A stretch of 43,713 nt of DNA from Acidobacteria bacterium AH-259-G07 (GTDB lineage: Bacteria > Acidobacteriota > UBA6911 > RPQK01 > JADFOI01): positions 1 through 43,713 of the forward strand of contig JALLON010000002.1 in NCBI GenBank assembly GCA_027717925.1, read 5' to 3'. A program made the translations under genes and the position numbers. Positions 10,382 through 32,794 of the stretch are shown one piece after another (the stretch's first letter is position 1; each line of letters starts with the position of its first letter). Below the pieces are notes generated by a model. That model searched no databases and was not told the DNA's origin. It worked only from the letters and a program-made list of their open reading frames with translations.

Positions 10382-10591
10382 GGTCCCGAATTGTAGCAGA
10401 CTGCCGGGCAGTAGCGGGAAACCTTGAGGAAAAGAAAAAGAGGCTGGGTGGCTCTAATTTGTGGTATATCCGATATTTCTTGACAGCCTTCGAGACGCAG
10501 GAATAGGGTCCCATAGCCAATTATCTTTATGCGAAGAGTAGATCCAGTTATCCAGTAGACAGGCTTGAAAAAAGCAGTGGTTGTGCTATAT

Positions 10592-11707: not shown

Positions 11708-11736
11708 ACACTACATGATTTTTGGGAAGTTAAGAG

Positions 11737-14700: not shown

Positions 14701-14751
14701 GTCGGAGAGGCTAAAGCAATACAGGCCATTGAGATAAAAATCGAGGACTAA
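11737..14751 (+). CDS. large exported multidomain protein with a zincin-like N-region, Ig-like repeats and three C-terminal ChW repeats
   Basis: GTG start and signal-like N-terminus. It has LAQELGHRWGAY, which is HExxH-like but with Q in place of the first His. The middle is Ig/PKD/IPT-like and beta-rich. The C-terminus has three ChW-type repeats: GHFAFTGWSSPVSNGDTLGEPGGNQLEAIKIWL, AHVAFDGWLGWVSDGGVAGTTGEAKQMEAIEIKL and VYIEGFTWQGWASDGATAGTVGEAKAIQAIEIKI. Confidence 0.7.
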   Translation: MRRKTLLCFSLHILLCGVDPLLCQRPENIHVVTLPAPLLKITSGEEFDPLALAIANRFYEARGDDYDFLTIFTTFSLENPDSIPARYQPVRNDIDGIGRDLFDKSDHFFPDAQKFHRLQGIILMYELDQWPDDFNQRFERSAFSTFSVLAQELGHRWGAYIRFKRDDESREDLLGRNNAHWSFYFNTQTIAPSVTGRDVSSSSLQGNAWQENGNGTFSTIGDGVDGYSMLDLYLMGLVNLDTSERFSYISNPSRSSLFSSLPSKNDNPKVGVTVRGKLESLTLADVINQEKPRNPAVGPNTFRQAFILVEKEGEPATELQISKVDKIRKEWKKYFNQATFSLGQVVTSLVNKTGPLLSINKTSFCVGDTWTLGVTDGQPGSSVFLHVWKDINNDGDFNDPGEDTGESGPYGDPIHADGTWDLGGTFDSNAIGNWRIQATVAEQQSNPITFSILSECDTTDPTVDAFRVSPGSVTIGNPFTISYTASDAGGSGLNGVELNRANDRGGSPVNWTAIDRNSHSGNGPVSGSFSDVPSSEGTYWYGVHAVDNAGNRTPEPNPPGPIKVTVDEELTLSVSLLASPSSGSAPLNGVDLTATVSGSATGTINYIFYCDRSDSGTKITSGWADKFDGINDNPKTAVDACNYNSAGTYTAKVIAERGDAPPAEARTTITVSRPPQPTLRIDGDLSSTLQQNGGTFQFTGSNYTQDGKVTRYLRDENENKTILKPTLPSDDMADSNGNIGWQFAPGCEHAPGDYTIWVVDEDTKRKSNTVTETITASDSCLIPQITYIDPPQVEPSTFTLTINGKNFDSGAKDQVYWKATGTLIGSGVESGDLISLSSNQLVVKERMDGVEPGTYLVRVKNGNGKLSNGVDLVVLPTVTYEGHFAFTGWSSPVSNGDTLGEPGGNQLEAIKIWLSDYGITYRAHVAFDGWLGWVSDGGVAGTTGEAKQMEAIEIKLVGAPSSIHVWYRVYIEGFTWQGWASDGATAGTVGEAKAIQAIEIKIED

Positions 14752-14893
14752 TCCGTTGGGATTTTGTTGTGTGGTAGGTTGATTGTATGGGGAAGAGAAG
14801 CTAAGGGGCGTAAAATGGTTTGTCTATCATGAACGAGAGGCCACCTCCGCCAAAGCCGCCAACGCCACCTCAGCCACCACCTAAACCTCCTAG

Positions 14894-15120
14894 TCCTCCT
14901 CCGTCCGGGGTTAAGCGTCTGAGTTGATGCCATTGGTCATCTTGAGTGTTGAGTGATGTTGACAAATGATGAAATTCGGGGTGTGGTGAGGTTTTAGGAC
15001 GCCGAGCACAAAAAAAGCCGACCATATGGTCGGCTTTACTTGTCTTAACGCCAAAAACTCTTAGTTCTTATTGCCGGTATCTGTCCATTGAGCGGGGGCG
15101 ATAGTGAGGCAGATTGAACA
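14894..15120 (+). repeat. ghost mobile-element end, copy 1 (includes a decayed excisionase 3' end)
   Basis: It shares these blocks with 26913-27207 and 28211-28476: tcctcctccgtccgggg; ttgacaaatgatgaaattcggggtgtggtgag (14959-14990); ccgagcacaaaaaaa plus a hairpin; and tctgtccattga(g/c)cgggg. Read on the minus strand, the last block gives HYRPRSMDRYRQ*. Compare NYRPRSMDRNGRN* at the end of the intact excisionase gene (28351). Confidence 0.7.
15009..15037 (-). terminator. rho-independent terminator downstream of the 15203 gene (bidirectional-looking)
   Basis: Hairpin gccgacc-atat-ggtcggc (15017-15034). It is flanked by an A-run on the plus strand, which is a T-run on the minus strand. Confidence 0.7.
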
Positions 15121-15202
15121 CAAGTTCTAATGTTTACAATGCGGATGGAATAAATACAAACGACCGGGGTGTAATTACCAGCTGTTTGGGGTCAAACGTC
15201 CG

Positions 15203-16300
15203 TTACTTGTTCCCTGTCTCATGGATTTGGTGAAGCCGTCTAATTGTGGTGGCTGCCTCTTTATATCGCGTTTTTTGCTCTGACTCAGGTGTGGACCAAA
15301 GTTCCTTGAGCTTGAGCTTTATTGTTTGCAAAATTTCTTCATCATTGAGGGTACCGATAGCGTTGTGCGTCCTAATTGCTGTTGCCAAATCACTATGGTC
15401 TAAAGCTGACTGAGCAAAGCCACGAAGAGTAGCTTTGGCTCGCTCAGCTGCTGCCTCATGAAACTCTCTCTTTTTGCGATCCCACACTTCGAACTTGTAA
15501 GATTTGGGTGCTTTCTCCAAGGTGTGGTAACCCCAATCCTTGATTTTCTTGCCGAGATCGTAGTCATTCCGCATCCTACCCAACTTATCAGATAGTGCTT
15601 TTACTTCTTCCGGAGAAAGAAGTAGCGAGTTATTGGCTATCTCCCTTTCTTCGCCAATGAATTTAGCGAGCGTATCTATGACTTTGTCAGGCGTAATTTC
15701 CCGGAAGGATCGAACCCGGATTGGAACATTCTCTATGATCCTGTGAAGATACTGCTCTCTGGTGACTTGAGCGATTGGGATGTGGTACTCACTATAAACA
15801 GGCAATCGATATTCGCCGTAATTCTTCTGAGACGTTAGCAAGGTCGCCTGACTCAACACTTTTTCTTTCTGGAAGGCGGAAAGCTCATTGGGTGCTTTCA
15901 ACGCGAGGTAATTTGCATATCCGATGTCATGTGATTTCTCAAGTATAGTTTTGTATTCCAAGTCGTCATCAAATCTCTCGGGTGTCTCAGAGACATCAGC
16001 TAATCTTTCGCCTGATTCCTGGATCAATTCATAAAGCTCCTCCAACCCTTTCGTCTTTTTTTCCTTTTCAACGCCCATTTCCTGCGGACTTGGGCGCTCG
16101 TATTCACCGGGCAAATCCCATTGTTTTAATTGTTTTAATGGTTTGTTAACAATCATTGAAAAACGCTGTTTTTTTAAACAATCATCACCTGGTAGACCAA
16201 CACTGAAGTCGATCACAGCCCCGAGTGCTGAGGAGTCGGCCGGATTGTCGCCAGTTTTTAGAACTCTTGTCGGTTCAACAGCTCTGCGCGGCATCCGCAT
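15203..16300 (-). CDS. hypothetical protein (365-aa ORF; ATG at 16156 would give 317 aa)
   Basis: A long ORF with no motif I can assign. The start is uncertain. It is flanked on both sides by copies of the ttgacaaa..ggtggtgag junction sequence. Confidence 0.55.
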   Translation of the reverse strand: MRMPRRAVEPTRVLKTGDNPADSSALGAVIDFSVGLPGDDCLKKQRFSMIVNKPLKQLKQWDLPGEYERPSPQEMGVEKEKKTKGLEELYELIQESGERLADVSETPERFDDDLEYKTILEKSHDIGYANYLALKAPNELSAFQKEKVLSQATLLTSQKNYGEYRLPVYSEYHIPIAQVTREQYLHRIIENVPIRVRSFREITPDKVIDTLAKFIGEEREIANNSLLLSPEEVKALSDKLGRMRNDYDLGKKIKDWGYHTLEKAPKSYKFEVWDRKKREFHEAAAERAKATLRGFAQSALDHSDLATAIRTHNAIGTLNDEEILQTIKLKLKELWSTPESEQKTRYKEAATTIRRLHQIHETGNK

Positions 16301-16385
16301 GGATCATTCACGAGAGGTCGCCAAGCAAGAATCGTTCCAGTTCACGGCGAGGGACCAGACAACGTCGGTCGGTTCTCGATGATCA

Positions 16386-16440
16386 TTGACAAAATGTTCA
16401 GGAGGTGGTGAGTTTGAGCCGTTTTAGGCTCGGGGTCTCG
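16386..16440 (+). repeat. degenerate fourth copy of the junction sequence
   Basis: ttgacaaaatgttcaggaggtggtgagtttgagccgttttaggctcgg. Compare ttgacaaatgatgaaattcggggtgtggtgaggttttaggacgccgag at 14959. Confidence 0.5.
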
Positions 16441-17005
16441 AAAGAAGACCAAAAGTTTCAGTCGAGGGTAGTCAAAAATTTGACAATTTACCTATTCGGA
16501 AGTCTATCATTTTACCGAAAACGCGGCAAGCAACCTAGCTCAAGTTATCCACAACCTCTCTGCTTCAACATTCCAGAACCTGTCATGCCGACTTAAACTA
16601 TTCGGACGACAAACTGAACTGGGACCAACAGTGGTATCGTGTCACTGGGGCTCCCCTTATTGCCGGATCGATGGAGGACAGGGATTTATTGGGCAATCCT
16701 TGTCCCTGACCTGCCCCCACGAGTGGTACCACCCTCTAAGTTAGAGCCGGAATTTTGGCCCTATGACCGATCGCTATCCTGCTGTTAGAAAAGGCCGTTA
16801 GAAAATGCTATTGGAAAAATGCTAATTGAAGGCGTATATTGGGAATAACCCATAGAATTCAGAGGGGTTATCTTGCGCAGTAGATGTCACATAGTCCGCG
16901 GGCAGTTTGTTTCGGTATTTCCAAATTCTTTTCACAAGGCAGCCCCGGGAGGATAGGATCAAGCCAACAGTGAGTTGTGACTTGTCAGTAGCGGGAGGGA
17001 GTGTA

Positions 17006-18454
17006 GTGGAGTGTCCTCAAAAGTCTTTCCTTCATAGAGTTTTCTTGTTTCTTGTCATACTTTTAGGTTCCTGTAATGGATTACCTGACCCACCTCCTTG
17101 GGAGACATGCCCGGGCCTGGTTCCCAGAGACAGTTTGGCTGGGGCCACCAGGCCCTTGACTGCCGACGAGCTTGTTGTCTACCTGGACACCAGTGGCAGT
17201 ATGGCGGGTTATGTTTCCCTTGATCCCCAAAGACAAACGACTTTTAGTCGCACACTGCAAGAGTTACGGAGTCTCTTCAGCATCTTGGACCCACCAGTGA
17301 GAATTCTGGTGCGGCGAGTGGAGAAAACGGTGGGTCGGCCAGAGAATGATCGAGAACTGAGCACGGCATCTGTTACGAAAGAGATGTTTAGAGGAGGGGA
17401 AACGGATCTTGCAGGAGCCATCGGTCTCTTCCCCGAGAGTCTCAGCCGTGAGTTACGAGGTCAAACAGGGGAGGATGATTCTCGACCGCCTCGATTCCAC
17501 ATCTTAGTCACAGATGGAGTCCAATCAACAAAGGAAGAAAGATCTGACTCGCCCTGCATTGCTGGGTCAGATCAAATTTGTATTCGGAAAAAAATCCTTG
17601 AGTTACTGAACAGTGGCTGGGGAGGGTGTATCATTGGGATAAGAAGTGAGTTTGAAGGTAAGATCTATTCGGAAGTTAAGCCAGGACTCATTATTGATTA
17701 CAGCGACGAATCGGACATAGACAGATTTCGCCCATTTTACCTTTACATATTTTCCCCTGACCGTGTGGCTCTCGACGATCTGGTAGAGACCCTGATTGAC
17801 AGACTGGGCCAGGTAATTCAACAGCAAGATCTAATTCGTGTACTGCCTCTGACGTCTGGTTATAGAGTTGGTTTTGCGGAGGCCGAGTTGATCATTCCAG
17901 AGGAGCAAGAAGAGTGGTTGGAGCTTAGCAGGTTGAGGGAGGAGAATCCGGCGCGGCTAACGTTGAGGGTCAGTGTCGATACTGAGGATTCTGGGCCGAA
18001 ACCTTTTGATGTTTCTCTTTCCATTCCTTGGTCCAATACGGCTAAGAAGATTGGAACTCTGGAAGATCTCGCGGCACTTGTATGGTGGGATTTGACTATT
18101 CTGAACTGTGAGGATGTGGAAATTTCAATTGAAGACGAAAAACGACGGTATCCAGAGATTACTCTGATTGGGTACGAAACCGACCCAGCCGGACGAGTAG
18201 TGCTTCATGCGTCTGCTCAATGGCCGAAAGATATAGGTGTTCTTTCTTGGCACGTTTATCGGATCGAAGGACGCCTGGATCTGAAAGAGCATACGCCTCT
18301 ATGGGTCCGGGAATGGTCTACCAACTTGGATATCAGTGAGGAGACCGGAAACAGGACCCTTAACTTGGAAAGTATGCTCTTGGGGCTTTGGCGAAACGAT
18401 TTGCTTCAGCGTCAGGTTTTAGCCGAAGTTTGCATTAGAGTAGGACCTTTATGA
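17006..18454 (+). CDS. vWA-domain lipoprotein
   Basis: The frame is open from TTG 16907. GTG 17006 has GGGAGGGAG 5 nt upstream and gives (M)ECPQKSFLHRVFLFLVILLGSC, with lipobox LLGSC. MIDAS elements: YLDTSGSM (D at 17186), GGETDLAGAI, ILVTDGVQS. The roughly 280-aa C-terminal region is unassigned. Confidence 0.75.
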   Translation: MECPQKSFLHRVFLFLVILLGSCNGLPDPPPWETCPGLVPRDSLAGATRPLTADELVVYLDTSGSMAGYVSLDPQRQTTFSRTLQELRSLFSILDPPVRILVRRVEKTVGRPENDRELSTASVTKEMFRGGETDLAGAIGLFPESLSRELRGQTGEDDSRPPRFHILVTDGVQSTKEERSDSPCIAGSDQICIRKKILELLNSGWGGCIIGIRSEFEGKIYSEVKPGLIIDYSDESDIDRFRPFYLYIFSPDRVALDDLVETLIDRLGQVIQQQDLIRVLPLTSGYRVGFAEAELIIPEEQEEWLELSRLREENPARLTLRVSVDTEDSGPKPFDVSLSIPWSNTAKKIGTLEDLAALVWWDLTILNCEDVEISIEDEKRRYPEITLIGYETDPAGRVVLHASAQWPKDIGVLSWHVYRIEGRLDLKEHTPLWVREWSTNLDISEETGNRTLNLESMLLGLWRNDLLQRQVLAEVCIRVGPL

Positions 18455-18476: not shown

Positions 18477-18872
18477 ATGCTCGCTGAAATTTTGGGTTCT
18501 CGTATCCTAAGATTCTTTGCCAGCAACCGCGACTACGATGATTGGCAAGACACTGCCGGTGAGTGGATTTTTGCAGCAATTGTGGTGTCGGTGCTGGGCG
18601 CAGGTCTTATACTGGGTTACAAGTGGCTTCAGAAAAGGTTAGCGAGTGTCATTAAGAAACAGACGTGGAGCAGGAATGAAACGCTGGTTTTGGTGTTTGT
18701 AGGCCTTTTTCCGGTCTTTATCCTTGTTCTAATCGTCTGGTACTCTTCACGAGATTTTGTAAATGTAATCGGTGTTGGGGGTTTAATAAAAGGAACTGTA
18801 TTGTCCTGGATTCTATATCTGTTTTTCACAACGCTTGGGCACCTGGGGCCCTGGCGAAGAGAACTTTTCTAG
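18477..18872 (+). CDS. small membrane protein (131 aa, about 3 TM)
   Basis: ATG with GGAGG upstream. Hydrophobic helices: WIFAAIVVSVLGAGLILGY, LVLVFVGLFPVFILVLIVWY, VLSWILYLFFTTLG. It lies 22 nt after the vWA gene and 11 nt before the next gene. Confidence 0.7.
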   Translation: MLAEILGSRILRFFASNRDYDDWQDTAGEWIFAAIVVSVLGAGLILGYKWLQKRLASVIKKQTWSRNETLVLVFVGLFPVFILVLIVWYSSRDFVNVIGVGGLIKGTVLSWILYLFFTTLGHLGPWRRELF

Positions 18873-18883: not shown

Positions 18884-21800
18884 ATGAAGAACGTCTTTAT
18901 AGCTATCGGAGGCAGTGGCGCCAAAGTGGCTGAAACTTTTCTTCGCCTCTTGGCTATTGGTTTTCCAACGCGGAGAGAAAATACTGTTCTCACAAGTTCT
19001 GGTAACTCTCTTCAGGTATGGCGAGTTGACACAGACCTTAACTCAGGTGCAGCCGCGTCGCTTCAAAGTTGTATGAGGGACTACACTGAATTGCAAAGGC
19101 ACCTTGGGGACGATGCTGGCAGTCGGTGGGCAATGGAGGTCGATCCCAAAATCCGCCATCTCAATCCACTACAATTATCTCCCGCTGATGCCAACGATAA
19201 CATTATCAAGACGCTCAGAGGAATTCTAGATTCGAGGTATGGCGATAAGAAAAGCTCCGCACCATTGCTCGACCCATTTTACGAAAACAATGAGCTTGAC
19301 GTCGTTATAGATAGAGGATTCTACCAAAAGCCCTTTATCGGGGCAGCTATAACGGCAGTCTTTGCGGACTCGCTGACAGACGAAACCTCACCAGCTGGAA
19401 GGGTAGCGAGACTTACTTCTTTCTACGACAATGAGACGAACTTTTTCGTATGTGGCAGTTTGCATGGGGGCACAGGAGCATCTGGACTACCAGTTATGGG
19501 GCGCTTCCTGAGCACGCGACGAAAACCTGGACGGCGATGGCGTATTGGAGCGTGCCTTTTGGCTCCTTATTTTATCCCTCCACAACCACCCTTCAAGGCC
19601 TTGGAAGCAACTGCACAAATCACGGATGAAAAGATTGAAGAACTAGTCGACCAGCACGCTAGTGACCCTGCCTTCAAAGATCTGTTGCCTGAGCGAAAGC
19701 GAGAACTAGTCCGGCAGATTCTCCAAGGCTTTTACGCAGATCCGAATGAGATGGAAGCTCGTGCTCGACAAAGCCTCCTATATTACAAAGAGTACAGTAG
19801 TGAATATTTTGACGAAGTCTACCTCGTTGGTAAACCGGAACCAGACAAGCTAACAATTTGGAGTAATGGCGGACCAAGTCAGAACAACCCGCTCAATTCA
19901 GCCGAAGTAGTTGCGGCCCTTGCGGCTTTAAGGTTTTTTTCCAGATCGAGCAAGGAGAAGCCTGGTCGCTACCTACTTGGTGCATCAACGGGGGACCTAG
20001 ATTCTCAGAAGATGAATTTGTATCAGTTGCCCAGATATAGCATTGGTTCTGGCGAAGACATTGACCCGGAGAAGGTTTTTCTGGCGACTGCCGTCCTGCA
20101 TCATCTTTTGCTTCACCAGATCCGTTGGGAAGTACCGGCTAAGAGTTGGAGTGGCATCGAGGGACTACGAGATGTTTATAAAAACAATGAGACAAAGAAG
20201 GAGTCCGACTACAAGGATTACCAGGAAGCTCTACGTATCATCGCTAACTTTGCGAAGTCGTTGGTTTCACCTCATGAGACGATTGCGAGAGGGTGGAGCG
20301 GTGCTGATTCAAGCCAATTCCATGAGTTTTTCTCAGGTGACGAGGGTAGGATCAAGCAAATTACAAGCAAAGTAGCTAGGAAAAATCCGTGGAGTATTGG
20401 GGCCAAAGGGTCTCTCGTTTTGGGGCGGTCTGAGATCACGGTGTCCACAGTAGCATTCGGTAGATGGTCTCCTCCAGGGCCACAGTTTGATCGAGGTGAG
20501 TATCTTCGTTCTATTTGGTCTGAGCTCTATAGTAGGGCGTGCGATGTTAAAGGTGGCGAAACAAGCAAGGGGAGCGCCAAGGTGTTCCTTAATAGGGGTA
20601 TCGTGGGCGGTGGAGCAGGTGTTTCTGCAGACCGCATTTTTTTCACTCTGGCAAAAGACGATGTCGATGTGCCTGAATACGATCCAAAATTCTTTGAAAC
20701 CTTTCCAACGGCATGGGCCAGTGCTTATGCCTTTGTCAAAACGCTTGAGGCTAATAAGACGTCAGAGGATCGAACGGTGAAAATCGCAACCGAAGAATGG
20801 GCCTCTCTCCTTCTGCTCCATTATTACGGGATTGCCCATTTACAAGAGTACGGGAGAGAAGAGCTGCAGAGAAATTACGATAAGGATCTCTGGCCTGCCC
20901 TGAGTGGAACCTATCCTGCCAAAGGTACCGACCTTGACAGGGTAAGCGTGCTTGAAACTGACGATGCAACTGTCTTGGGAGGATACTATGAAGAAGTCGT
21001 ATTTTTCCCAATTCGCAATCGCTCTAAGTGGAGCCAAACAAAAGAGACAGTTCTTGGCAGGTATCTCGGGGAAGGTTGGCGGCGATTATCCTGGAAGCTT
21101 TGTTCCGAAGAACTTTTGAAAGAGGACGACAGGAAGAAAGAGTTCCATAAGCACCTGAGGCAGGTTATAGAAATTCTGCCGAGTTCGAAACTCAAACACC
21201 GATTAGAGAGGTTCTGTGACAGTAAGTTTGGCAAATGGCTAGGTGTTTTAGTAGGTTCTTTGACTAGATACCCGAGAGAATGGGAGATTCCTGCTGACCA
21301 GCCTAAATCGCCTAGCACGCTCTTAGATGCGTATCCGTTCAAGAAAGGGGACGAAAAGGTCGGATATACCTATTATCTGGTTTCGGGAATGCCACAGCCT
21401 CAGCCGTGGGCTACTAAGGTTATTGTCAAGGAAGGCTGCTCCCCGTATCAGTATAGAAGGACCGGTAAATCTGAAATTACAGTCTATCTTGCCGGTCAAA
21501 AGATAAAATGTTCTCTGAGAGATAATGATAAGATTGTTGAGCTTAAAGAACTTTTTTTGTCCGATGACCCCTATTGGTCCAAAATCGATCACCCATCGGA
21601 AACTCACTCCTTTAGGATAAAGCCCTTCCACATCGTAGACTTGCGAGCTCCTGAGCTGAAAAGTGACGAGATGGCTGTGTGCCTGGCGCCACTCAAGAGA
21701 GAATTCTTAGAACATTTCCCTGAGTTGTTTTCAAATCTGGACAGAGTAGGAGTTTTCGCGGATGGGGATGCTGTGGTTTGGTCAATGCCAATAGTTTTTG

Positions 21801-23953
21801 AAGAAGAGGAAAAAACTCTTCTCTGGCGTACTACACCTATCTTACATAAGGCGCTTTCTAAGACATCAGTGGCCATCTGGCCTCCAAAGGTTTCCGACGA
21901 GTGGAGACTCTATATAGCTTATGTAACTGGTGGCAAGAAGAAAGAATGGGGATCATGGCACCTGATTGACGAGAATGGGGTAAAAGGTACGAGCATTGAA
22001 CTAGAAGAGGATGAGCACGTTAGTGTTCTAAAGAATGTGAACTCGCCGAACAGACCCAGAGCCTTACTTTTTGAGGACCATAAGAGTACAGAAAGGGGTC
22101 TTTTGCTCCTCGCTGGTTCCGACAAGGACAAAGACATTCGTGCCCCAAGCCTAGATACAAAGGTCGTCTTGTCTGTCGATTTCGGAACGAGTAACACATG
22201 TTTTGCTTACAAGAAGACTGATTCTTCGGTCCTCACTTTTGGTGTCAGTCCGGCAATGGTTTGGGGACCCAGTTTCCCTGAAGGGCCTGGCTTTGTCCCT
22301 TTTGAATGGGGGGGCAGGAAGGGCTTTTTCCCAACAGTTTTGCTATCGAGGCGGAACGCACGGAAGCTGTTTGAGATCGACCCGAGCGAGATTAGAATCG
22401 AGCAGTTGACCAGAGTCGACATCCCAGGTCTCCATTTCGGATTGGAGAAAGCCCTATATCATGGAGAGTTAAACGCGCTGTGGGAAGGGCACACAGACTT
22501 AAAGTGGGGTTTAGACCTCCAGACTCCCTGGCGTTCTTTGTTTCTGGCATTATCGCTACTTTACGCCCATGCTGAAGTGTTTTTCGGTGATGACAAGGGC
22601 GGGAAAATCGATCAGTATGTTTTTACCTTTCCATTAGCAATGTCTACCAACAAAGAGCACTTTCACAACGAAGTACGAAGGCTAATTCGGAAGGTGCGAG
22701 AGTGGTGCTACGGTTCGAGCTCAACGGATTTGGATTACATCGACTACATTAGTGAAAGCATAGCTGTTGCACGTCACGCTCGTGTCGGTAAGAGCCGATC
22801 AAGCATTGATTTATTCATTGATGTAGGTGGAGGAACCGCAGACATTGCTGTGCGTCGCAAGCACGACTTCCTAGCTTTGGATAGCATCAGGGTGGCCGGA
22901 AACACCTTTTTCAAGTTCGCTCAAAAGAATTTCGCTGAGGATGAGGATATTGTAGGGGCCTCGCAGTTCAAAAGGCATCTGGCCAGAGTTTTGTTGCCTG
23001 GGAAGGCTGGTGAACTTGAGGCCAAGGATCTGCCAATGGATCTAAGCACTTTTTACTCCCTTGCGATAAATGCTTTGACAGATGAAGAGTTTAGACGATG
23101 GGAAGCAACAGTGCTAAAGGAAGGCATGGGAGAAAGAAAGAAAGACCCCTCTTATCAGCAATATCGGACGCGTTTGCTTTTCCGTCATCTTTTAGCTTAT
23201 TCGCTACTCCAAGCATGTGCTGCTACTATCCATCATCGATGTGAACTTAGAGATGGTATCAAAGTGATCCTCGCAGGGAACGGCTGGGGCCTAATGTTGT
23301 TTGGAGAACTTACCAGAAGAAGCGAAGAAATAAAAGAGGAATCCAATAGAATCCTTGGACTCTGGAAACCCAAAATGTTGGAGCTGATCGATGAAGCCGA
23401 GGGTGAGTATTTGGACCAACTTTTTGTGCGAGACGTAGAACTGCTGAATGAAAAGAACTTTGCACAAGCAAAGACGGCCGTGAGTCTTGGCGCTCTGAAT
23501 GCTGTGGAGGAGGGGCAGAAAAGTGAAACTTTGGTGAGGCCATACACGGGAATTACAATCAAAAACCTGAGGATCAATGACGACTTGGGCCCGACTACTC
23601 TGCGTTGGTGCGATAAGTGGGGATATGAGGTCCTTAAAGAGAGATTCGATTCGTTGGAGGATATTGAGAGCGTTGAGTTTGAGGTACCCCCGCAACTTCG
23701 CAAACCGCTAGATTCCATCATGACTATATTCACTTGCCTCGGAAACGCCAGGAGAATTGATCAAGATAACTCGCCTCCGGAGTTGTGGCACGATGTCAAT
23801 GCCGAGCTTGCTAGCTACATTACAGGTCTGAGTGGGCGAGAAATGGGCCCTTGCCCAGTTAATTATTTCCTTTCTGGGGTGTTATACGCCGAGGATGAGC
23901 AGCGGGATTTTCTAGATATACTCGCGGAGACTAACGGTCGCTATAGCGCGTAG
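18884..23953 (+). CDS. 1689-aa fusion protein: N-terminal tubulin/FtsZ-like GTPase domain, about 700-aa unassigned middle, C-terminal Hsp70/actin-like (ASKHA) ATPase domain
   Basis: ATG with GGGAGG 7 nt upstream. N-terminal motifs: VFIAIGGSGAKV (T1 loop-like, 18908), WRVDTD, RGFYQKPFIGAAI, and FVCGSLHGGTGASGLPV (tubulin signature GGTGSG-like, 19463). C-terminal motifs: VVLSVDFGTSNTCFAY (phosphate-1, D at 22178), LFIDVGGGTADIAV (phosphate-2, D at 22820), VILAGNGWG (adenosine-motif-like). No TM segments. Confidence 0.75.
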   Translation: MKNVFIAIGGSGAKVAETFLRLLAIGFPTRRENTVLTSSGNSLQVWRVDTDLNSGAAASLQSCMRDYTELQRHLGDDAGSRWAMEVDPKIRHLNPLQLSPADANDNIIKTLRGILDSRYGDKKSSAPLLDPFYENNELDVVIDRGFYQKPFIGAAITAVFADSLTDETSPAGRVARLTSFYDNETNFFVCGSLHGGTGASGLPVMGRFLSTRRKPGRRWRIGACLLAPYFIPPQPPFKALEATAQITDEKIEELVDQHASDPAFKDLLPERKRELVRQILQGFYADPNEMEARARQSLLYYKEYSSEYFDEVYLVGKPEPDKLTIWSNGGPSQNNPLNSAEVVAALAALRFFSRSSKEKPGRYLLGASTGDLDSQKMNLYQLPRYSIGSGEDIDPEKVFLATAVLHHLLLHQIRWEVPAKSWSGIEGLRDVYKNNETKKESDYKDYQEALRIIANFAKSLVSPHETIARGWSGADSSQFHEFFSGDEGRIKQITSKVARKNPWSIGAKGSLVLGRSEITVSTVAFGRWSPPGPQFDRGEYLRSIWSELYSRACDVKGGETSKGSAKVFLNRGIVGGGAGVSADRIFFTLAKDDVDVPEYDPKFFETFPTAWASAYAFVKTLEANKTSEDRTVKIATEEWASLLLLHYYGIAHLQEYGREELQRNYDKDLWPALSGTYPAKGTDLDRVSVLETDDATVLGGYYEEVVFFPIRNRSKWSQTKETVLGRYLGEGWRRLSWKLCSEELLKEDDRKKEFHKHLRQVIEILPSSKLKHRLERFCDSKFGKWLGVLVGSLTRYPREWEIPADQPKSPSTLLDAYPFKKGDEKVGYTYYLVSGMPQPQPWATKVIVKEGCSPYQYRRTGKSEITVYLAGQKIKCSLRDNDKIVELKELFLSDDPYWSKIDHPSETHSFRIKPFHIVDLRAPELKSDEMAVCLAPLKREFLEHFPELFSNLDRVGVFADGDAVVWSMPIVFEEEEKTLLWRTTPILHKALSKTSVAIWPPKVSDEWRLYIAYVTGGKKKEWGSWHLIDENGVKGTSIELEEDEHVSVLKNVNSPNRPRALLFEDHKSTERGLLLLAGSDKDKDIRAPSLDTKVVLSVDFGTSNTCFAYKKTDSSVLTFGVSPAMVWGPSFPEGPGFVPFEWGGRKGFFPTVLLSRRNARKLFEIDPSEIRIEQLTRVDIPGLHFGLEKALYHGELNALWEGHTDLKWGLDLQTPWRSLFLALSLLYAHAEVFFGDDKGGKIDQYVFTFPLAMSTNKEHFHNEVRRLIRKVREWCYGSSSTDLDYIDYISESIAVARHARVGKSRSSIDLFIDVGGGTADIAVRRKHDFLALDSIRVAGNTFFKFAQKNFAEDEDIVGASQFKRHLARVLLPGKAGELEAKDLPMDLSTFYSLAINALTDEEFRRWEATVLKEGMGERKKDPSYQQYRTRLLFRHLLAYSLLQACAATIHHRCELRDGIKVILAGNGWGLMLFGELTRRSEEIKEESNRILGLWKPKMLELIDEAEGEYLDQLFVRDVELLNEKNFAQAKTAVSLGALNAVEEGQKSETLVRPYTGITIKNLRINDDLGPTTLRWCDKWGYEVLKERFDSLEDIESVEFEVPPQLRKPLDSIMTIFTCLGNARRIDQDNSPPELWHDVNAELASYITGLSGREMGPCPVNYFLSGVLYAEDEQRDFLDILAETNGRYSA

Positions 23954-24038: not shown

Positions 24039-24875
24039 ATGAGGGTACGGATGCGAAGACGCCGGATTTTAATGCTGAAGCAGGTATTCGTCGGAGTCCT
24101 AGCCTTTCTAGTTCTTGTCGTGGTCCTAGTTCTGCCAGCGATTTTGGTTAACGCGGGCGTAGTTGAGTGGATAGAACTAGTCGCTGTAGGGGTGTTAGTG
24201 TTGCTCACGCACCTGGTGCTACTGTGGAGAAAGAATGTAGACTTTTTGAGCGAAATGCTCGTCAGCTTGGAGAGAATCGCTGTCTCCATGGATGCGATTC
24301 TTGATGACAAACGGGAAGCTTGGGATTACACTCGCGGGGCTTTTGACGGGTCAGTTGCTAGACTCGAAAGGAATATTATCTCTGAATTAAAACCGTTGAA
24401 AACGGAAATTAGCAACATCCTCAATGAACTGGTCAAATCCAAAACCCTTCTCACGCATTTGGAGCGAGCGTCGGTTCCTGCTCATGAGGCTAAGATGCCA
24501 CAAGGCGAGGACCGGTCGAAAGCAATACTGGATGAAGATACTCGATCTCCTTTCGTGTTTCCGGTTTCAGCCGATGAGTTTATAAGCGCTACTGAAAGCA
24601 AGGCGATTGTAGCAAAGGATGATTTGAGCGGCATTCTAGTGAGGGATATGGAAGGCAAAGGGCAGTTCCTAATCATACCCAATGCTACTGGTGGAATTCT
24701 TATCCCGAGGTTGGCGCATTTCAACAGGAAGTCCGATTTCTATACTCACTATGAAAAATATTACTATTGCAGCAACCCTTCCGCGGGAGCCATTTCGATC
24801 GTTCGGCCTGCCACTGTCGGTCAAGTGACAGGGGGTTGGAAACTTACAGAAAAAGGACAGCTGGAGATTAGTTGA
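24039..24875 (+). CDS. membrane-anchored coiled-coil protein (278 aa, 2 N-terminal TM)
   Basis: ATG start. TM helices: VFVGVLAFLVLVVVLVLPAILV and IELVAVGVLVLLTHLVLLW. These are followed by a coiled-coil segment and an unassigned, roughly 110-aa C-terminal domain (FLIIPNATGGILIPRLAHF...YYYCSNP). Confidence 0.65.
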   Translation: MRVRMRRRRILMLKQVFVGVLAFLVLVVVLVLPAILVNAGVVEWIELVAVGVLVLLTHLVLLWRKNVDFLSEMLVSLERIAVSMDAILDDKREAWDYTRGAFDGSVARLERNIISELKPLKTEISNILNELVKSKTLLTHLERASVPAHEAKMPQGEDRSKAILDEDTRSPFVFPVSADEFISATESKAIVAKDDLSGILVRDMEGKGQFLIIPNATGGILIPRLAHFNRKSDFYTHYEKYYYCSNPSAGAISIVRPATVGQVTGGWKLTEKGQLEIS

Positions 24876-24879
24876 CTCT

Positions 24880-26490
24880 ATGGCCTACCGCAGTGCTCAA
24901 GACCAGCAACTGAAGGTCTTTTGTCCTACACACAGTCTAAGCTTTCGAGTCCTTCGAAGCAGCGTCATTCTTTGTAGCGATGGCTCGCACGCATTGTCCC
25001 AAGATTTCCCGTATGGGGAATATTGGTGTTTCTGTTGTGATTGCCAGAATTTCTGGCCCTCAAATTTGACAGGGGAGGGCTTACGGTGGAAGCAATGTGT
25101 CGTTTGCGGTCGGCAAGTCGCCAGGCGATATTTGTGTCCTAAATGCAAGGTGGTGAGTTTTGAATCGACTGAATCGGAAGAAGAAAAGTCTTTCAGTATC
25201 TTAAGGAACGGCGTAATACAACCGTCCTGTCCGGCATGTTTTTCCACTCTGAATGTTCCGGCAGCGTCTCATCAGTGTTCAGAAGTCAAAGCCCTTCTGA
25301 TGATCAGCACGGCCTCATGCCCTTTTTGCCAGGAGCCCATCGATTCAGAGAGAGAACAAGGTAAGGAAATGCGTGCAGAGCCTCAGCATGGCAACAAGGC
25401 CGTGGTCAGCAAGAGGCTACCTAAGACTAAGATCAAGAGTGGCATGCGAGACGCGGCCAGCAATGTGCGGCCTCTGGTTCGAGGCAAAAAGGGTAGTTCA
25501 TTCCCAGAAAATCGAAGGGAAAAGTCCGATGATGCAAGCCAAGCCTCACAAGAGGAATCAAGGAGTGACCAGGAACTGGAGTTAGAACTCCAAAAAATGA
25601 CCGAAAAGATGGGCGAGTTGGAATCAAGCTATTCGGAAGTACAGCAGTTAGCGCAAGAGAGATTGGAAGGGCTTGAGCAAAAGGAAAACGCTTTACAGCG
25701 AATGAAAGCGCATGCTCGATTCGGGTGGGTTTTGGGCTTGTCCACTATTGCGATGATAATCGTTCTGCTAATCTTCTCGCCAACCGGCTCCAAGGAAGCG
25801 AGTGGATCTGACAAGCTAGACGAGTTGCAGAAGCGTAACCAGGAACTGGAGTTAGAACTCCAAAAAATGACCGAAAAGATTGGCGACTTGGAATCGAGCT
25901 ATTCCGAACTACAACAGTTAGCACAAGACAGATTGGACACAGCACAATTTCTTAACCGGGAACTTGAGCAAAGAGAAAATGCTTTACGTCGGATGAGAGC
26001 GGAAACTGGGTCTTCCATTAACTCTTACGAGGGCAGGGTCCGAACCCTAGCCACAGAAAAGACTGAGCTCTCATTGAGTAACGAGAAGCTCAAGAGTCAG
26101 AACACGGGATTGACATCAAGAATTCGTGAGTTGGAAACGAACTTGAAGGTGAAAGAGGCGGAGCTACGGGAGATTGCCAGAAAAGAAGCTCCCTTAGCCG
26201 TTGACAATGCTAAAGTTCCTAGGACGGGAATCGTTCATTGGCGTTGTCAAGACCGGAAGGGTGAGGTGTTAGTCGAGATCTGGGAGAATAAGGCAAATGT
26301 CGGTATGGTCACGGACGGTGTGTTGCCGCAAGTTCCTGTAAAGTTTACTGATGTTAATCGCGTAGGAAGAGTTGAGATCCTTTCAATGAAACCACCTACC
26401 CACAGCAACTCCTCTGCTCAATTCATACTCCGAGTAAAAGATGAAGATCCCTTCGGTCTTGTAATATTCTGGGAGAGGTTGGGCCAGTGA
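24880..26490 (+). CDS. Zn-ribbon-rich, single-TM coiled-coil protein (536 aa) with internal duplication
   Basis: It starts 4 nt after the previous stop. The N-terminus has multiple Cys pairs (CFCCDC, CVVCG, CPKC, CPAC, CPFC). A duplicated segment QELELELQKMTEK(M/I)G(E/D)LESSYSE(V/L)QQLAQ(E/D)RL lies on either side of the TM helix FGWVLGLSTIAMIIVLLIF. The C-terminal beta-like domain is unassigned. Confidence 0.7.
   Translation: MAYRSAQDQQLKVFCPTHSLSFRVLRSSVILCSDGSHALSQDFPYGEYWCFCCDCQNFWPSNLTGEGLRWKQCVVCGRQVARRYLCPKCKVVSFESTESEEEKSFSILRNGVIQPSCPACFSTLNVPAASHQCSEVKALLMISTASCPFCQEPIDSEREQGKEMRAEPQHGNKAVVSKRLPKTKIKSGMRDAASNVRPLVRGKKGSSFPENRREKSDDASQASQEESRSDQELELELQKMTEKMGELESSYSEVQQLAQERLEGLEQKENALQRMKAHARFGWVLGLSTIAMIIVLLIFSPTGSKEASGSDKLDELQKRNQELELELQKMTEKIGDLESSYSELQQLAQDRLDTAQFLNRELEQRENALRRMRAETGSSINSYEGRVRTLATEKTELSLSNEKLKSQNTGLTSRIRELETNLKVKEAELREIARKEAPLAVDNAKVPRTGIVHWRCQDRKGEVLVEIWENKANVGMVTDGVLPQVPVKFTDVNRVGRVEILSMKPPTHSNSSAQFILRVKDEDPFGLVIFWERLGQ
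25569..25937 (+). repeat. in-frame intragenic direct repeat (about 99 bp x2, 270-bp offset)
   Basis: 25569-25667 versus 25839-25937. The first 42 nt are identical (ccaggaactggagttagaactccaaaaaatgaccgaaaagat). The rest is about 85% identical by eye. Confidence 0.85.
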
Positions 26491-26762
26491 ATCGAGAGCT
26501 GTCCTGCCCGGAAGTTGGTGATCCTGAAATGAAGTCTCTTTCTGCGCAGTGGGCCGAATCACTCCATCTGGGCAAGGATTTGGGCGAACTTGTGCTGGAC
26601 AAAAAGCCGCAAACTGCACGTGAAGAAATAGAAACCTTTGTTGCTTGTCTGAACCTCCTGCTCAAACAAAACGCAAAGTTTGAACTAGCTGATTGGCGTG
26701 AGAGGCAATATGGGACCCACATGGCACAAGCCGCAATAATAAAGGTAATGCCTCCTGCCTAA
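26487..26762 (+). CDS. small hypothetical protein (91 aa), last gene of the operon
   Basis: The GTG start overlaps the preceding TGA (GTGA at 26487-26490). No motif assigned. Confidence 0.5.
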   Translation: MNRELSCPEVGDPEMKSLSAQWAESLHLGKDLGELVLDKKPQTAREEIETFVACLNLLLKQNAKFELADWRERQYGTHMAQAAIIKVMPPA

Positions 26763-27421: not shown

Positions 27422-27928
27422 CTATTCAAACAAGGAACCCGGCTTATTCGGGTTGCAGATCACGTGTGTGTGTTTCCAGGATCCGTCCAGCTGGCGTCGA
27501 AGAATGTCAATGCACTTCATTTCGATCTCCATGGGCTCGCCGCCCGCCTTCGGGATGCGCCTTCCCGTGTGAGTGCCCCGTTGGAATGCCCAGTCACCGG
27601 CTACAATGACTTCTTCGTGCGACATGGTGAATTCAGCCTTCCACGGAGAACGATGAGTTTGCCACCACGAGCGAAGCGCTTCCTTCCCTACAACGGGTGG
27701 TTCGTTCGGCCACATCCATACTATGTCGTCACTCCATAGGGACATGAGGGCACCCAAGTCGCCCGCATTGATTGCGGCTACCGCTTGCTCTCGCACCCTC
27801 TTGACCGCCTCCACGTCTGCCTCGGTGGTGGGAGCTTCTTCGACGGCAGGCCCCGGCTCCGGCGCACAGTCTTGCGAAGATATACTGACTAGAAAGATCA
27901 CAACCCAAAAACTCGATAATTGCCTCAT
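27422..27928 (-). CDS. SnoaL-like/DUF4440 (NTF2-fold) exported or lipoprotein
   Basis: ATG with GGGAGGGGG upstream. Signal sequence FWVVIFLVSISSQDC. Motifs AVAAINAGDLGALMSLWSDDIVWMWP...GKEALRSWW are typical of SnoaL/DUF4440. The gene is GC-rich compared with its flanks. Confidence 0.65.
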   Translation of the reverse strand: MRQLSSFWVVIFLVSISSQDCAPEPGPAVEEAPTTEADVEAVKRVREQAVAAINAGDLGALMSLWSDDIVWMWPNEPPVVGKEALRSWWQTHRSPWKAEFTMSHEEVIVAGDWAFQRGTHTGRRIPKAGGEPMEIEMKCIDILRRQLDGSWKHTHVICNPNKPGSLFE

Positions 27929-28210
27929 TGGATATCCCCCTCCCGGGAGCCTCGAGGATCTAACCTAATAATTCGCCCATATAACAATAAGTATCCTGGT
28001 CAGTATAACACCCCCGGTTATCCCTATAAACGGTCAGCGAAACGTGGCCAAAGTCCTGCCGTAATCAGATTGCCTGCAACAGGTTCCGCTGTACATTCCC
28101 TCAGAGCGAGAGTGTTATGCCTATCCGCATATCACCGGTTTGGTGTCGTGTCCATGGGGCTCCGAACGCCCTTCGGCCCCTGACTGAGTACGTGGGCGTA
28201 GACCATCGGC

Positions 28211-28476
28211 CATCCTGATCCTGAGCGAAGTCCTGATTGAGCTGAAGTTGACAAATGGTGAAATTCGGGGTGTGGTGAGTTTTAGGATTCCGAGCACAAA
28301 AAAAGAGCGGGGATGAACCCGCTCTCTTGCCTTTCTGACCTAGTCTCGCTTTAGTTGCGACCGTTTCTGTCCATTGACCGGGGCCGATAGTTTTGCTGTT
28401 CGATCCATTCCAGTATTTGTTCTTTTACGAAGCGGACGTTTGATTGGATTTTGACGTAGGGGATAAGTCCCCGCTG
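28211..28476 (+). repeat. mobile-element end, copy 3 (the intact one, overlapping the excisionase 3' end)
   Basis: It contains catcctgatcctgagcgaag, a local 17-bp duplication, ttgacaaatggtgaaattcggggtgtggtgag (28248-28279), the terminator, and the excisionase 3' end. Confidence 0.85.
28298..28325 (-). terminator. rho-independent terminator of the excisionase gene
   Basis: Hairpin agagcggg-atgaa-cccgctct (28305-28325), followed on the minus strand by a T-run (28298-28304). Confidence 0.75.
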
Positions 28477-28599
28477 TACATAGCTATAAATCGTCTTCAC
28501 ATCTATCTTTAAAATCGCCTCAAGTTCCTTTGCGGTAAGTAACTCTGGGATATGTCTGGAACTTGATTGGCGTTCTGTGGTTTTAGGTCGAGCATCCAC
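28351..28599 (-). CDS. excisionase-family (MerR-like) HTH DNA-binding protein
   Basis: GTG start with AGGAG 6 nt upstream. LLTAKELEAILKIDVKTIYSYVQRGLIPYVKIQSNVRFVKEQILEWI is the classic excisionase-family helix-turn-helix pattern. Confidence 0.8.
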   Translation of the reverse strand: MDARPKTTERQSSSRHIPELLTAKELEAILKIDVKTIYSYVQRGLIPYVKIQSNVRFVKEQILEWIEQQNYRPRSMDRNGRN

Positions 28600-28639
28600 T
28601 TAAAACTCCTGATTGGTAGATTGTTTGTTTTTGCATTGC

Positions 28640-29332
28640 TTATTCTCCTTTCTTGTGATGATGAGGACTCGGTGCTGATCCCAGTATCGAGTGGATCTCA
28701 TGGTCAGCAAGCCGTGTCCAAATTTTGTCTAAAATACTCTCTGGATTATCCAGGGAGAGCTTATGTTCCTCGGTGAAGAGGAACATGCGTCCGAGCGCCT
28801 GTAACTCCTCGGCATCCTCTGCCGAGGAGACGAGATTCGCTTTCCGCATGGCGCTCGTAGTTATCGTAAGCACCCGGAAGTAGCGGATGCCAAATCTGTC
28901 TTCGTGCTTTTTCTCCCGCCAATAGGCGGCATAACCTTTTAGTTTCAGCGTGAAACGCTTAAGGGTCATCGTGCCACGGTCAGCTTCAAGGAAGAAATAC
29001 ATCCTGCCTTTGGCATCCTTTATGCCGAAGAAGGCGTCAGGGGCAACGGGGACGCGGGCGTAGCCCCCTTCAAGGGCCACCTCAATTGCATCGTAGATCT
29101 CTCTGCCCTCTCTCCAGAAAAGCAGCTGGAGGTCTTCACGCCTCCGGCATGCTGTGGCAATCACCGCTCGGACCTGAGTTATAAGGAGGCGGTGGTTGAT
29201 GGAAAGGTCCTGGAGGGAGCGGTTTTTTTCATTCCAGTCAGTCTGTGTTACCTCTTGGATCACCCCTTCCTTTTGGAGTTCCCGGAACCCTTTGTTGGTG
29301 ATGACCTTGTAAGGTAGGATCTCGTTAGCCAT
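28640..29332 (-). CDS. replication-relaxation family protein
   Basis: ATG with AAGGAGG upstream. INHRLLITQVRAV...VAPDAFFGIKDAKGRMYFFLEADRGTMTLKRFTLKLKGYAAYW matches the Replic_Relax pattern (H..., PDa-f, ffLE-DrGT, K---Y). Confidence 0.6.
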   Translation of the reverse strand: MANEILPYKVITNKGFRELQKEGVIQEVTQTDWNEKNRSLQDLSINHRLLITQVRAVIATACRRREDLQLLFWREGREIYDAIEVALEGGYARVPVAPDAFFGIKDAKGRMYFFLEADRGTMTLKRFTLKLKGYAAYWREKKHEDRFGIRYFRVLTITTSAMRKANLVSSAEDAEELQALGRMFLFTEEHKLSLDNPESILDKIWTRLADHEIHSILGSAPSPHHHKKGE

Positions 29333-29398
29333 CGCAACCTCCTTTACAGGTTGGGTGGTCAGGTCTCACATCCTGCTGTGTACAGGGTGTGAGACCGC

Positions 29399-31035: not shown

Positions 31036-31223
31036 TCTTCGGTCTTGGAAATAATCCAGGTTGGTTTTCTGATCTTTTCTTTTCTCTTTGTTGAGACGTT
31101 GGTTTTTGGAAAGAACTATCCTCAGCTTAGAAGACTGGCAGCAGCAGACAAGGCAGGAAAACTTGACAAAAAGTCAAATCTTCCGGCCTTTTCAGCTCAC
31201 GAGGTACGGGAGATCATGGGAGG

Positions 31224-32752: not shown

Positions 32753-32794
32753 CCCCAAAATTCTTTGAGAGCATGATTGACGCGGTTGTGATAG

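Follow-up and report, generated by a model that had tools for sequence, protein, structure and literature searches.

An open reading frame (ORF) of 1,689 codons, found in a 43,713-nucleotide (nt) stretch of the genome of Acidobacteria bacterium AH-259-G07 (contig JALLON010000002.1, positions 1 to 43,713; hereafter the window), joins a tubulin-like protein in frame to an actin/Hsp70-like (ASKHA) protein, which are referred to below as the N and the C part, respectively. Judging from sequence comparison, this fusion is best read as a Rosetta-stone event exposing a widespread tubulin-like/actin-like partnership in a five-component, envelope-associated gene cassette. Cells have two great families of filament-forming nucleoside triphosphatases (NTPases), the tubulin type and the actin type; their cooperation is known, as that of FtsZ with FtsA, but to our knowledge not within one polypeptide. 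The explanation that we favour as a whole, with a probability of about 0.6, is that the protein is a natural fusion of two genes whose products are the NTPases of a mobile membrane cassette with an accessory role.

The two halves of the protein are encoded by separate, adjacent genes in most of its relatives. With the N part (residues 1-551) as the query, more than 330 proteins were retrieved, and the best 120 of these, mostly from Pyrinomonadaceae and Blastocatellia, were nearly all stand-alone proteins of ~555-590 residues with 51-68% identity. The C part (residues 561-1689) retrieved 65 stand-alone proteins, nearly all of which had ~1,115-1,205 residues. At one locus, L001, the two are products of adjacent genes lying 78 nt apart, with lengths of 564 residues (64% identical to residues 1-551) and 1,128 residues (50% identical to residues 561-1689). 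At least 488 genome loci were confirmed in a survey in which one genome per species was scanned, and 80 loci were fetched for N-C pairing. In 60 of these 80 the N gene, typically of ~500-565 codons, is followed by an ASKHA-matching gene of 944-1,380 codons (typically ~1,080-1,220), which comes directly after the N gene in most cases and is separated from it by an intervening gene in a few; the Rosetta-stone test suggested in an earlier reading of the window made from the sequence alone (the sequence-only reading), i.e. whether the halves occur as separate adjacent genes elsewhere, is thus positive. The paired loci come from Acidobacteriota, Bacteroidota, Chlorobi, Poribacteria, Selenomonadales, Alphaproteobacteria (including Brevundimonas and Pelagibacteraceae) and, in large number, Cyanobacteria (Arthrospira, Microcystis, Calothrix, Trichodesmium and Nostocales), and the public annotation of the ASKHA partner is 'hypothetical protein' throughout. 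The unpaired remainder of the 80 loci consists mostly of truncated contigs or of a Selenomonadales variant described below.

Fused proteins, with lengths of 1,340-1,740 residues, occur at five separate places of the N-domain similarity network. The first is that of the window protein, whose nearest neighbours are all split (66-68% identity); the second and the third are those of P0002 and P0003, whose nearest other neighbours are likewise split; the fourth, P0245/P0314, adjoins cyanobacterial split forms; and the fifth is a clade fused throughout (P0004, P0228, P0255, P0260, P0280, P0311 and P0317). The N-to-C order is constant in all the fused forms, and the contigs of P0002, P0003 and P0004 show the same order of two upstream cassette genes and the fused gene (A-B-NC). 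Furthermore, the protein sequence of P0002 was recovered identically from several samples. To judge from the network, the fusion arose independently in at least three lineages and probably in five. Because constant neighbours have been fused repeatedly and independently, there is strong genomic evidence that the tubulin-like and the ASKHA protein would act as one unit.

In the window, the fused ORF begins with an ATG and runs in a continuous frame to a single terminal stop, as had been claimed in the sequence-only reading, and all seven of the motifs quoted there are found in the translation, the residue positions given for them being approximate. The GGGAGG Shine-Dalgarno sequence noted at that time is also present, although it lies 6 nt and not 7 nt before the ATG. 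Local hidden Markov models (HMMs) match the N part at residues 1-554, the middle of the C part at 563-1079, the ASKHA domain at 1090-1503 and a tail at 1507-1688, while the alignment to split homologues stops at residue 551 and resumes at residue 561; the gene boundary therefore lies at residues ~552-566, not between the two NTPase domains. The linker at this place, ACDVKGGETSKGSAK, roughly equals in length the end of the upstream and the start of the downstream protein taken together. Within it, a Shine-Dalgarno-like AAGGGGAG stands 7 nt before a GTG codon (V567; window 20564-20584), a site that looks like a remnant of the ribosome-binding site of the downstream gene, and the ASKHA half might also be made separately from an internal start at codon 567. 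The codons GAA560, AAG562 and AAG566 are each one substitution away from a stop, and the intergenic N-C spacers of the relatives measure ~20-30 nt. On these sequence features, the simplest history of the fusion in the window would be the loss of a stop codon together with a spacer that was in frame.

A single miscalled base could create the fusion by the same route. The window fusion might then be an artefact or a very recent lesion, in which two genes have only apparently or lately been joined, with the stop lost by a miscall (e.g. TAA to GAA at codon 560) or by mutation, and with C still translated from GTG 567. Such a view is in line with the split state of all the closest relatives, with the 15-residue linker, its near-stop codons and its putative internal start, with the short spacers elsewhere and with the origin of the sequence from one contig; however, the frame is continuous and the ORF intact, equally short linkers are present in fused homologues of other lineages, including P0002 with its identical sequence in several samples, and a real stop-loss mutation would still be a real fusion. 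We hold this explanation to be very improbable. The earlier argument that the ORF is not an artefact is weaker than it was thought to be, as the linker has a Shine-Dalgarno-like motif with a GTG and is one substitution away from a stop.

The tubulin fold proposed at the N-terminal end was borne out by an AlphaFold2 (AF2) model, by Foldseek and by the Pfam matches of relatives, with the boundary about as stated. The model of residues 1-565, built from 123 sequences, has a predicted local distance difference test score (pLDDT) of 90.2 and a predicted template modelling score (pTM) of 0.93. When it was compared with PDB by Foldseek, tubulin, FtsZ, CetZ and PhuZ structures made up the top 40 of 40 and 49 of 50 among the matches listed, with probabilities mostly of 1.0 (0.44-1.0) and E values of 6e-4 to 5e-3. 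An exhaustive HMMER search with the N-part profile yielded 1,819 clusters at 50% identity, mostly of 480-570 residues, 1,470 of them at E <= 1e-10, and the profile of the window clade matches this wider family at E = 1e-30 to 1e-50. Among 70 more distant members of the family, 59 match Tubulin_2 (PF13809; best E = 1.4e-11) and 29 match Tubulin (PF00091; best E = 2.4e-6), which would by transitivity place the window protein in the tubulin/FtsZ superfamily. Alignment of 81 N-family sequences, a check that the sequence-only reading had recommended, showed that G9, G10, G26, D49, G145, G153, S192, G195, G198, A199, P228 and Y229 are invariant, and Q333, N335 and E341 are kept in no fewer than 90% of the sequences. 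The T1 loop is present as IGGSGAK (residues 8-14), and the T4 signature GGGTG(S/T)G appears as HGGTGASG, with the first G and the S/T substituted; by their order among the secondary-structure elements, the conserved residues fit the loops T1, T3, T4, T5 and T6 of a nucleotide pocket (Table 1). Outside the close clade residues ~356-551 are not conserved, and the profile ceases to match distant members near residues 240-350. Taken together, the model and the matches support the view that residues 1 to ~355 are a nucleotide-binding domain of the tubulin/FtsZ type which belongs to the divergent Tubulin_2/FtsZl1 branch. Some members of the family bear the NCBI name 'tubulin-like doman-containing protein', and the tubulin-like family is already named in databases; within the known Tubulin_2/FtsZl1 group, the N module stands out as short and as having no coiled coil.

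The ASKHA fold claimed for the C-terminal end is likewise supported, again with a boundary about as stated, by Foldseek, by the family profile and by matches to MreB_Mbl. The AF2 model of residues 561-1689 (69 sequences; pLDDT 87.4, pTM 0.81) gave 533 Foldseek matches in PDB at E <= 1e-3, led by DnaK, MreB/Mbl, the nucleotide-binding domains of Hsp70 and BeeR, with E values from 6e-9 and a target-normalised TM-score of up to 0.65, to MreB; its matches in the viral structure library BFVD are Hsp70 homologues and actin-related proteins. A profile of 29 C-family members from several phyla matched the PDB sequences of MreB (4.8e-10), BeeR (2e-5), FtsA (5.6e-5) and Hsp70 (4.7e-4), and 20 of the 29 members themselves match MreB_Mbl in Pfam (best 3.8e-7), six FtsA and none HSP70. 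In the alignment of these members, also envisaged earlier, the catalytic residues proved invariant, namely D1099, F1100 and G1101 of phosphate-1, E1291, which aligns with the catalytic Glu of MreB, D1313 and G1315 of phosphate-2, and G1465 of the adenosine motif; D1320 of phosphate-2 is kept in at least 90% of the sequences, and K1207, W1208, P1250, K1530 and G1536 are invariant as well. With such conservation in both parts of the protein, the motifs of the sequence-only reading are no coincidence. Based on these residues the ASKHA domain looks catalytically competent, and by sequence it appears nearer to bacterial actins than to Hsp70. Membership in the MreB/Mbl family proper was rejected, since the window protein scores 19.6 bits against a Pfam cut-off of 27, over 55 residues only, and 19 against 366 for TIGR00904; so was an Hsp70 chaperone, PF00012 being unmatched in the window protein and in the 29 members. 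The whole window protein, when searched against Pfam, NCBIfam and PDB sequences, gave only a sub-threshold MreB match at residues ~1288-1342 and none at its N-terminal end. The C module represents an ASKHA family that is new and has no annotation. On the N-terminal side of the ASKHA domain, residues 567-1085 are modelled mostly at pLDDT 80-95 and contain conserved motifs such as PTAWA and EEW, with P608, W611 and W639 (window numbering) conserved across phyla, while Pfam, PDB and Foldseek searches returned no fold assignment for this region. The HMM of the C-terminal tail matches all the C and fused proteins of the acidobacterial-type clade (L001 and L004-L018) and three fused proteins outside it (P0004, P0228 and P0255).

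When the neighbouring ORFs were clustered across 83 loci, the conserved order of the cassette was found to be A - B - N - C, followed by one to four genes with a so-called E domain. Gene A of the window, whose true start is probably internal to the ORF given in Table 1, has 50% identity to its positional counterpart in L001, and in 55 loci a homologue is found ~2 kb from the tubulin-like gene, on the upstream side. It has a MIDAS-like (metal ion-dependent adhesion site) D94-x-S-x-S98 and T202-D203, and the lipobox Cys56, D94, S98 and D203 are conserved in 32-53 members; gene A possibly carries a von Willebrand factor A (vWA) domain, to judge from these motifs, while a PDB profile search of it retrieved only lipoprotein signal peptides and no vWA match. 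A gene of 125-190 codons occupies the position of gene B in 60 loci, and its product has transmembrane (TM)-like segments in 59 of the 60. Gene E is 37% identical to a 379-residue protein of L001, and its C-terminal domain occurs in 81 ORFs of 44 loci as 1-4 paralogues; with a single exception these lie downstream of the C gene, and the domain is usually C-terminal, behind variable TM or coiled-coil regions. In cyanobacteria up to four paralogous genes with this domain stand in tandem (L020, L027, L028, L051, L060, L063 and L074), sometimes with two or three copies of it per protein and with differing N-terminal regions, and these arrays look like a diversified set of adaptors or sensors. Gene F, the first 160 residues of which are 45% identical to a 519-residue protein of L001 and whose other matches are only to coiled coils or SMC-like proteins, is a lineage-specific accessory protein; a 91-codon ORF (26487-26762) that overlaps its end by 4 nt and has no Pfam match may be a further member of the operon. 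No Walker A motif was found in genes A, B, NC, E and F, and no Pfam GTPase match in the operon.

Other loci show further additions to, or departures from, this set. Pentapeptide-repeat proteins are a lineage-specific addition, and in Bacteroidota, Poribacteria and some Acidobacteriota the cassette is followed by a MotA/ExbB-like and OmpA-family pair (L035, 15828-18260; L052, L062 and L072), which by analogy is reminiscent of ZorAB-type or Tol/Exb-type stators. In L078 (Ilyomonas) a bona fide Hsp70 gene (15127-16659; PF00012, E = 7e-81) begins within the ASKHA gene, 4 nt from its end, so that some cassettes come with a third nucleotide-dependent protein. Two Nostocales loci (L058, 18323-20521; L059, 17412-19604) have, a few kb downstream of the main pair, a second ORF of ~730 codons with a weak match to the ASKHA profile (1e-7 and 4e-6, respectively) and no Pfam match. 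The Selenomonadales variant (L036, L040, L044, L046, L049, L050, L053, L065 and L075), in which C is not detectable, is flanked by LytR_cpsA_psr, YrbL, TPR and FTHFS genes, and the full set is present in Selenomonas ruminantium (L048).

Table 1. Features of the fused gene, of its cassette and of the remainder of the window (nt positions refer to the window, residues to the fused protein unless stated otherwise)
Feature	Position (nt)	Residues	Strand	Evidence
Fused ORF, tubulin-like (N) joined in frame to ASKHA (C)	18884..23953	1,689 in all	+	ORF, local HMMs
Tubulin/FtsZ-type nucleotide-binding domain	18884..19948	1 to ~355	+	AF2, Foldseek/PDB, relatives' Pfam matches, invariant residues
N-part motifs GGSGAK; WRVDTD; RGFYQKPFIGAAI; HGGTGASG		9-14; 46-51; 144-156; 194-201	+	translation
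Candidate loops T1 GGSGAK, T3 GFYQKPFIGA, T4 HGGTGASG, T5 APYF, T6 GGPSQNNP		within 1 to ~355	+	secondary-structure element order
Mostly helical C-terminal region of N protein	19949..20536	~356-551	+	AF2 secondary structure
Fusion linker ACDVKGGETSKGSAK	20537..20581	552-566	+	alignments to split homologues, DNA inspection
N-terminal half of C protein, helical, then beta-rich	20582..22138	567-1085	+	AF2
ASKHA (actin/MreB/Hsp70-like) ATPase domain	22139..23398	1086-1505	+	Foldseek, profiles, invariant residues
C-part motifs DFGTSNT; DVGGGTAD; ILAGNGWG		1099-1105; 1313-1320; 1462-1469	+	translation
Phosphate-1 D1099-FGTSNT; catalytic E1291; phosphate-2 D1313-VGGGTAD; adenosine G1465-NGWG		within ASKHA domain	+	
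C-terminal helical tail of C protein	23399..23950	1506-1689	+	AF2, local HMM
Gene A, predicted lipoprotein (~470 residues in family)	16907..18454		+	homologues, lipobox, MIDAS-like motifs
Gene B, small polytopic membrane protein, 3-4 hydrophobic segments	18477..18872	131 in all	+	
Gene E, N-terminal TM helices and C-terminal E domain (~110 residues)	24039..24875	E domain 161-277 of gene E product	+	
Gene F, Cys-rich zinc-ribbon-like N-terminus, TM segment, coiled coils	24880..26490	TM 278-304 of gene F product	+	
Tyrosine integrase	669-1916		-	
Caspase C14	5551-6762		-	
TIR protein	7698-8507		+	
Hypoth_Ymh+LprI	9668-10381		-	
BNR/sortilin-like protein	10565-11707			
Protein with three ChW (clostridial hydrophobic W) repeats and Ig/TIG-like domains	11737-14751	1,004 in all		
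Replic_Relax (relaxase-like)	28640-29332		-	
DnaG-like primase	29399-30508		-	
TrwB-type coupling protein	31224-32402		+	
PLD nuclease	33081-34148		-	
Methyltransferases (N6/N4) and Eco57I-type enzyme	34166-37440		-	
Schlafen AlbA_2	38029-38931		-	
GmrSD	40239-41321		+	
Methyltransferase	41326-42198		+	

By its gene content at 669-16300 and 27422-42198 (Table 1), the window looks like an integrative, mobilisable element and at the same time a defence island. The G+C content is 0.58-0.62 in its first 2 kb, which include the integrase gene, versus 0.44-0.55 elsewhere in the window, and this shift would point to the edge of an island, or to a mosaic origin, near the left end; no tRNA gene was found in the window, and hence none to mark an attachment site. 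In an acidobacterial-type context the ChW-repeat protein, whose gene immediately precedes the cassette, is an unusual one. A weak match of the ORF 15203-16300 to Avd of diversity-generating retroelements (E = 0.069) was disregarded. Outside the window, P0003 adjoins IS66 and Tn3 transposases and an integrase, one copy takes up a quarter of the 47.5 kb of a mobilizable Gloeothece plasmid, and Picosynechococcus plasmids carry others; the distribution of the cassette across phyla is patchy. In these respects, as in its variable downstream paralogues, the cassette is similar to the predicted conflict systems in which Tubulin_2 proteins and HSP70s have been described (PMC7159879).

Several features of the cassette recall systems that have been described before. 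Makarova and Koonin (2010; PMC2875224) reported operons of FtsZl1, i.e. Tubulin_2 (PF13809), which also encode vWA and OmpA proteins, and proposed a role in membrane remodelling. The proteins here are like FtsZl1 in their divergent N-terminal nucleotide domain with T1-T4 inserts, and in that T6-H7-T7 is unrecognisable, as it could not be found in the FtsZl1 group either; membrane proteins are common to both kinds of operon, and gene A, with its MIDAS-like motifs, may correspond to the vWA partner, with OmpA at some loci here. On the other hand, classic FtsZl1 proteins have ~1,000 residues and include a long coiled coil as well as a helical C-domain, whereas the stand-alone N proteins have ~480-570 residues and no coiled coil in the model; the GTPase and protein-kinase partners of the FtsZl1 operons are absent here; and the constant partner here is an ASKHA protein of ~1,100 residues, which is not given as a core component in that paper. 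The supplementary table of the same study contains one case, the neighbourhood of Magnetospirillum FtsZl1 (amb2961), in which a 1,626-residue HSP70-like gene stands beside vWA genes (PMC2875224). Tubulin and HSP70 were also placed by Kaur, Burroughs, Iyer and Aravind (2020; PMC7159879) in predicted GTPase-centric conflict systems. The DO-GTPase/GAP1-N2 operons of that study contain Tubulin_2, vWA and TM proteins, with HSP70-type ATPases in another theme, and these systems have, as the cassette does, a constant NTPase core with variable accessory genes; NTP-dependent assemblies were proposed as their mode of action, to which the proposal made below may be likened. The tubulin and HSP70 themes are separate in that study (PMC7159879), while they are obligatorily paired or fused here. 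The assignment of the cassette to the DO-GTPase/GAP1 systems was rejected, as its operon has no P-loop GTPase (Walker A) and no GAP1 or FNIII component was recognised.

The C module shares with actins of the MreB/FtsA/ParM type the fold and the phosphate-1, catalytic Glu, phosphate-2 and adenosine motifs. It differs from them in that its ASKHA domain is set in a protein of at least 1,100 residues, with ~525 residues before and ~185 after it, and in that it is always paired with a tubulin-like protein. FtsZ and FtsA are themselves tubulin- and actin-superfamily partners at the membrane, encoded by adjacent genes in the dcw cluster. The pair described here has no close homology to them, its gene order is reversed relative to ftsA-ftsZ, it appears accessory and mobile rather than essential, and neither the C-terminal peptide of FtsZ nor the 1C/2B features of FtsA were identified in it.

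A number of observations weigh against the explanation that we favour. Apart from the single contig from which the window fusion is known, adjacency and fusion are the only grounds for supposing contact between the N and C proteins, and the Selenomonadales variant keeps B and N with no detected ASKHA gene. The N part resembles tubulins only remotely, the TM-scores being 0.2-0.39 and the root-mean-square deviations 8-11 Å in alignments of probability ~1.0 over ~315-340 columns; the window protein's own sequence has no Pfam tubulin match at E <= 0.1, and the N-family profile found among PDB sequences only CetZ2, at a non-significant E = 0.98, so that the tubulin assignment rests on Foldseek and on the Pfam matches of relatives. 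Moreover, neither a T7 loop (NxDxxD/E-type) nor a tubulin/FtsZ C-terminal domain is recognisable in N by sequence and secondary structure. Gene A matches VWA_2 only at E = 0.25, its vWA identity being drawn from motifs alone. As to the role, a phage collection contained no copies of the pair, PADLOC (PADLOC-DB v2) gave no meaningful match for the operon of the window or for typical members from four phyla, no recognisable effector enzyme was found in the core of the cassette, and 127 flanking ORFs sampled at random from ~70 loci are dominated by housekeeping and metabolic genes. These flanking ORFs do not support a general association with defence islands.

Since the T7 loop and the C-terminal domain are not recognisable, and the region past residue ~355 is helical in the AF2 model, unlike the alpha/beta C-terminal domain of FtsZ and tubulin, a classical polymerisation-coupled GTPase activity of the N module is doubtful. 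The 'cytomotive' label given in the sequence-only reading was not upheld for the same reason, and the data do not imply that the N part forms filaments. It may even be that one of the two modules is non-catalytic, most plausibly with the tubulin-like module as a non-polymerising GTP switch and the ASKHA ATPase as the sole motor. The lack of a T7/synergy-loop motif, the all-helical region that follows, the parallel finding on T6-H7-T7 in FtsZl1 (PMC2875224) and the invariant catalytic residues of the ASKHA domain all fit such a division of labour, but the pocket residues G9, G10, G145, G153, S192, G195, G198, A199, P228 and Y229 of the tubulin-like module are invariant in 81 sequences, and this, together with the retention of Q333, N335 and E341, argues for a retained nucleotide function; a different activating residue could serve hydrolysis. 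We consider a non-catalytic module unlikely, if worth keeping in view.

The cassette could also serve housekeeping or developmental membrane remodelling or cell architecture, and be no conflict system at all, as was put forward for the FtsZl1 operons (PMC2875224). All the partners besides N and C are membrane or envelope proteins, MotA/ExbB and OmpA pairs occur at some loci, and the housekeeping flanks in most genomes and the absence of a PADLOC match and of an effector enzyme, as described above, agree with this view; it is at odds with the patchy distribution across phyla, the copies on plasmids and mobile elements, the variable paralogues downstream and the position of the window copy among TIR, caspase, restriction-modification and GmrSD genes. 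On balance such a non-conflict envelope role has a minor share of the probability. A role in conflict, or in defence against phages or other mobile genetic elements, seems to us somewhat better placed, although we would put it at less than an even chance.

Plasmids are known to carry a tubulin-like protein, TubZ, and an actin-like one, ParM. With the window a mobile element and some copies on plasmids, the pair might thus be pictured as the segregation NTPases, TubZ-like and ParM-like, of a DNA-partition system. Yet most copies are chromosomal and lie among housekeeping genes, the conserved partners are a lipoprotein and membrane proteins instead of a centromere or a small DNA-binding adaptor, phage copies are lacking, and the N protein is without the TubZ C-terminal domain. 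A partition system of the TubZ/ParM type was rejected on this gene content and has, in our view, hardly any likelihood.

Of the explanation that we favour, a mobile membrane cassette with two NTPases, the analysis shows the folds, the conservation of the motifs, the order of the genes and their repeated fusion, while the contact between the proteins, their nucleotide specificity, their assembly and their role are what we infer. The N and C proteins would be obligate partners in a 1:1 complex on the membrane's inner face, where B and the E-domain proteins might anchor it and A might connect it to the envelope. Nucleotide binding could make the tubulin-like module self-associate or switch, the ASKHA module could through its ATP turnover remodel the tubulin-like module or co-assemble with it, and the output of the complex would act on the membrane or the envelope; the fusion would only hard-wire the partnership of N and C. 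The most likely role is an accessory conflict or envelope-stress function. However, because the membrane-remodelling idea fits the anatomy of the cassette equally well (PMC2875224), we commit ourselves only to a predicted membrane-anchored machine with two NTPases, accessory and mobile. A bolder version, in which the obligate hetero-complex is a hybrid dual-nucleotide (GTP and ATP) polymer or ring at the membrane, tied to the envelope through the MIDAS lipoprotein and working as a mobile anti-phage or envelope-remodelling device, is improbable; if true, it would add to the cytomotive machines of prokaryotes a class not known before, drawn from both cytoskeletal superfamilies.

In a literature search of limited extent, we found no description of a constant pairing or fusion of tubulin-like and actin-like proteins. 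What the fusion in the window brings to light is that a Tubulin_2-type protein has a constant actin/MreB-like partner of ~1,100 residues, whose family assignment was not found in the sources checked, and the occurrence of the pair in hundreds of genomes from many phyla, together with its repeated separate fusion, is about the strongest purely genomic evidence that there can be for joint working. The split and fused versions, the plasmid-borne copy and the culturable cyanobacterial hosts make this a concrete, testable system. The pair thus offers a way to get at the function of the FtsZl1/Tubulin_2 proteins, which are poorly understood, and is a candidate for a new membrane-associated machine, possibly a defensive one.

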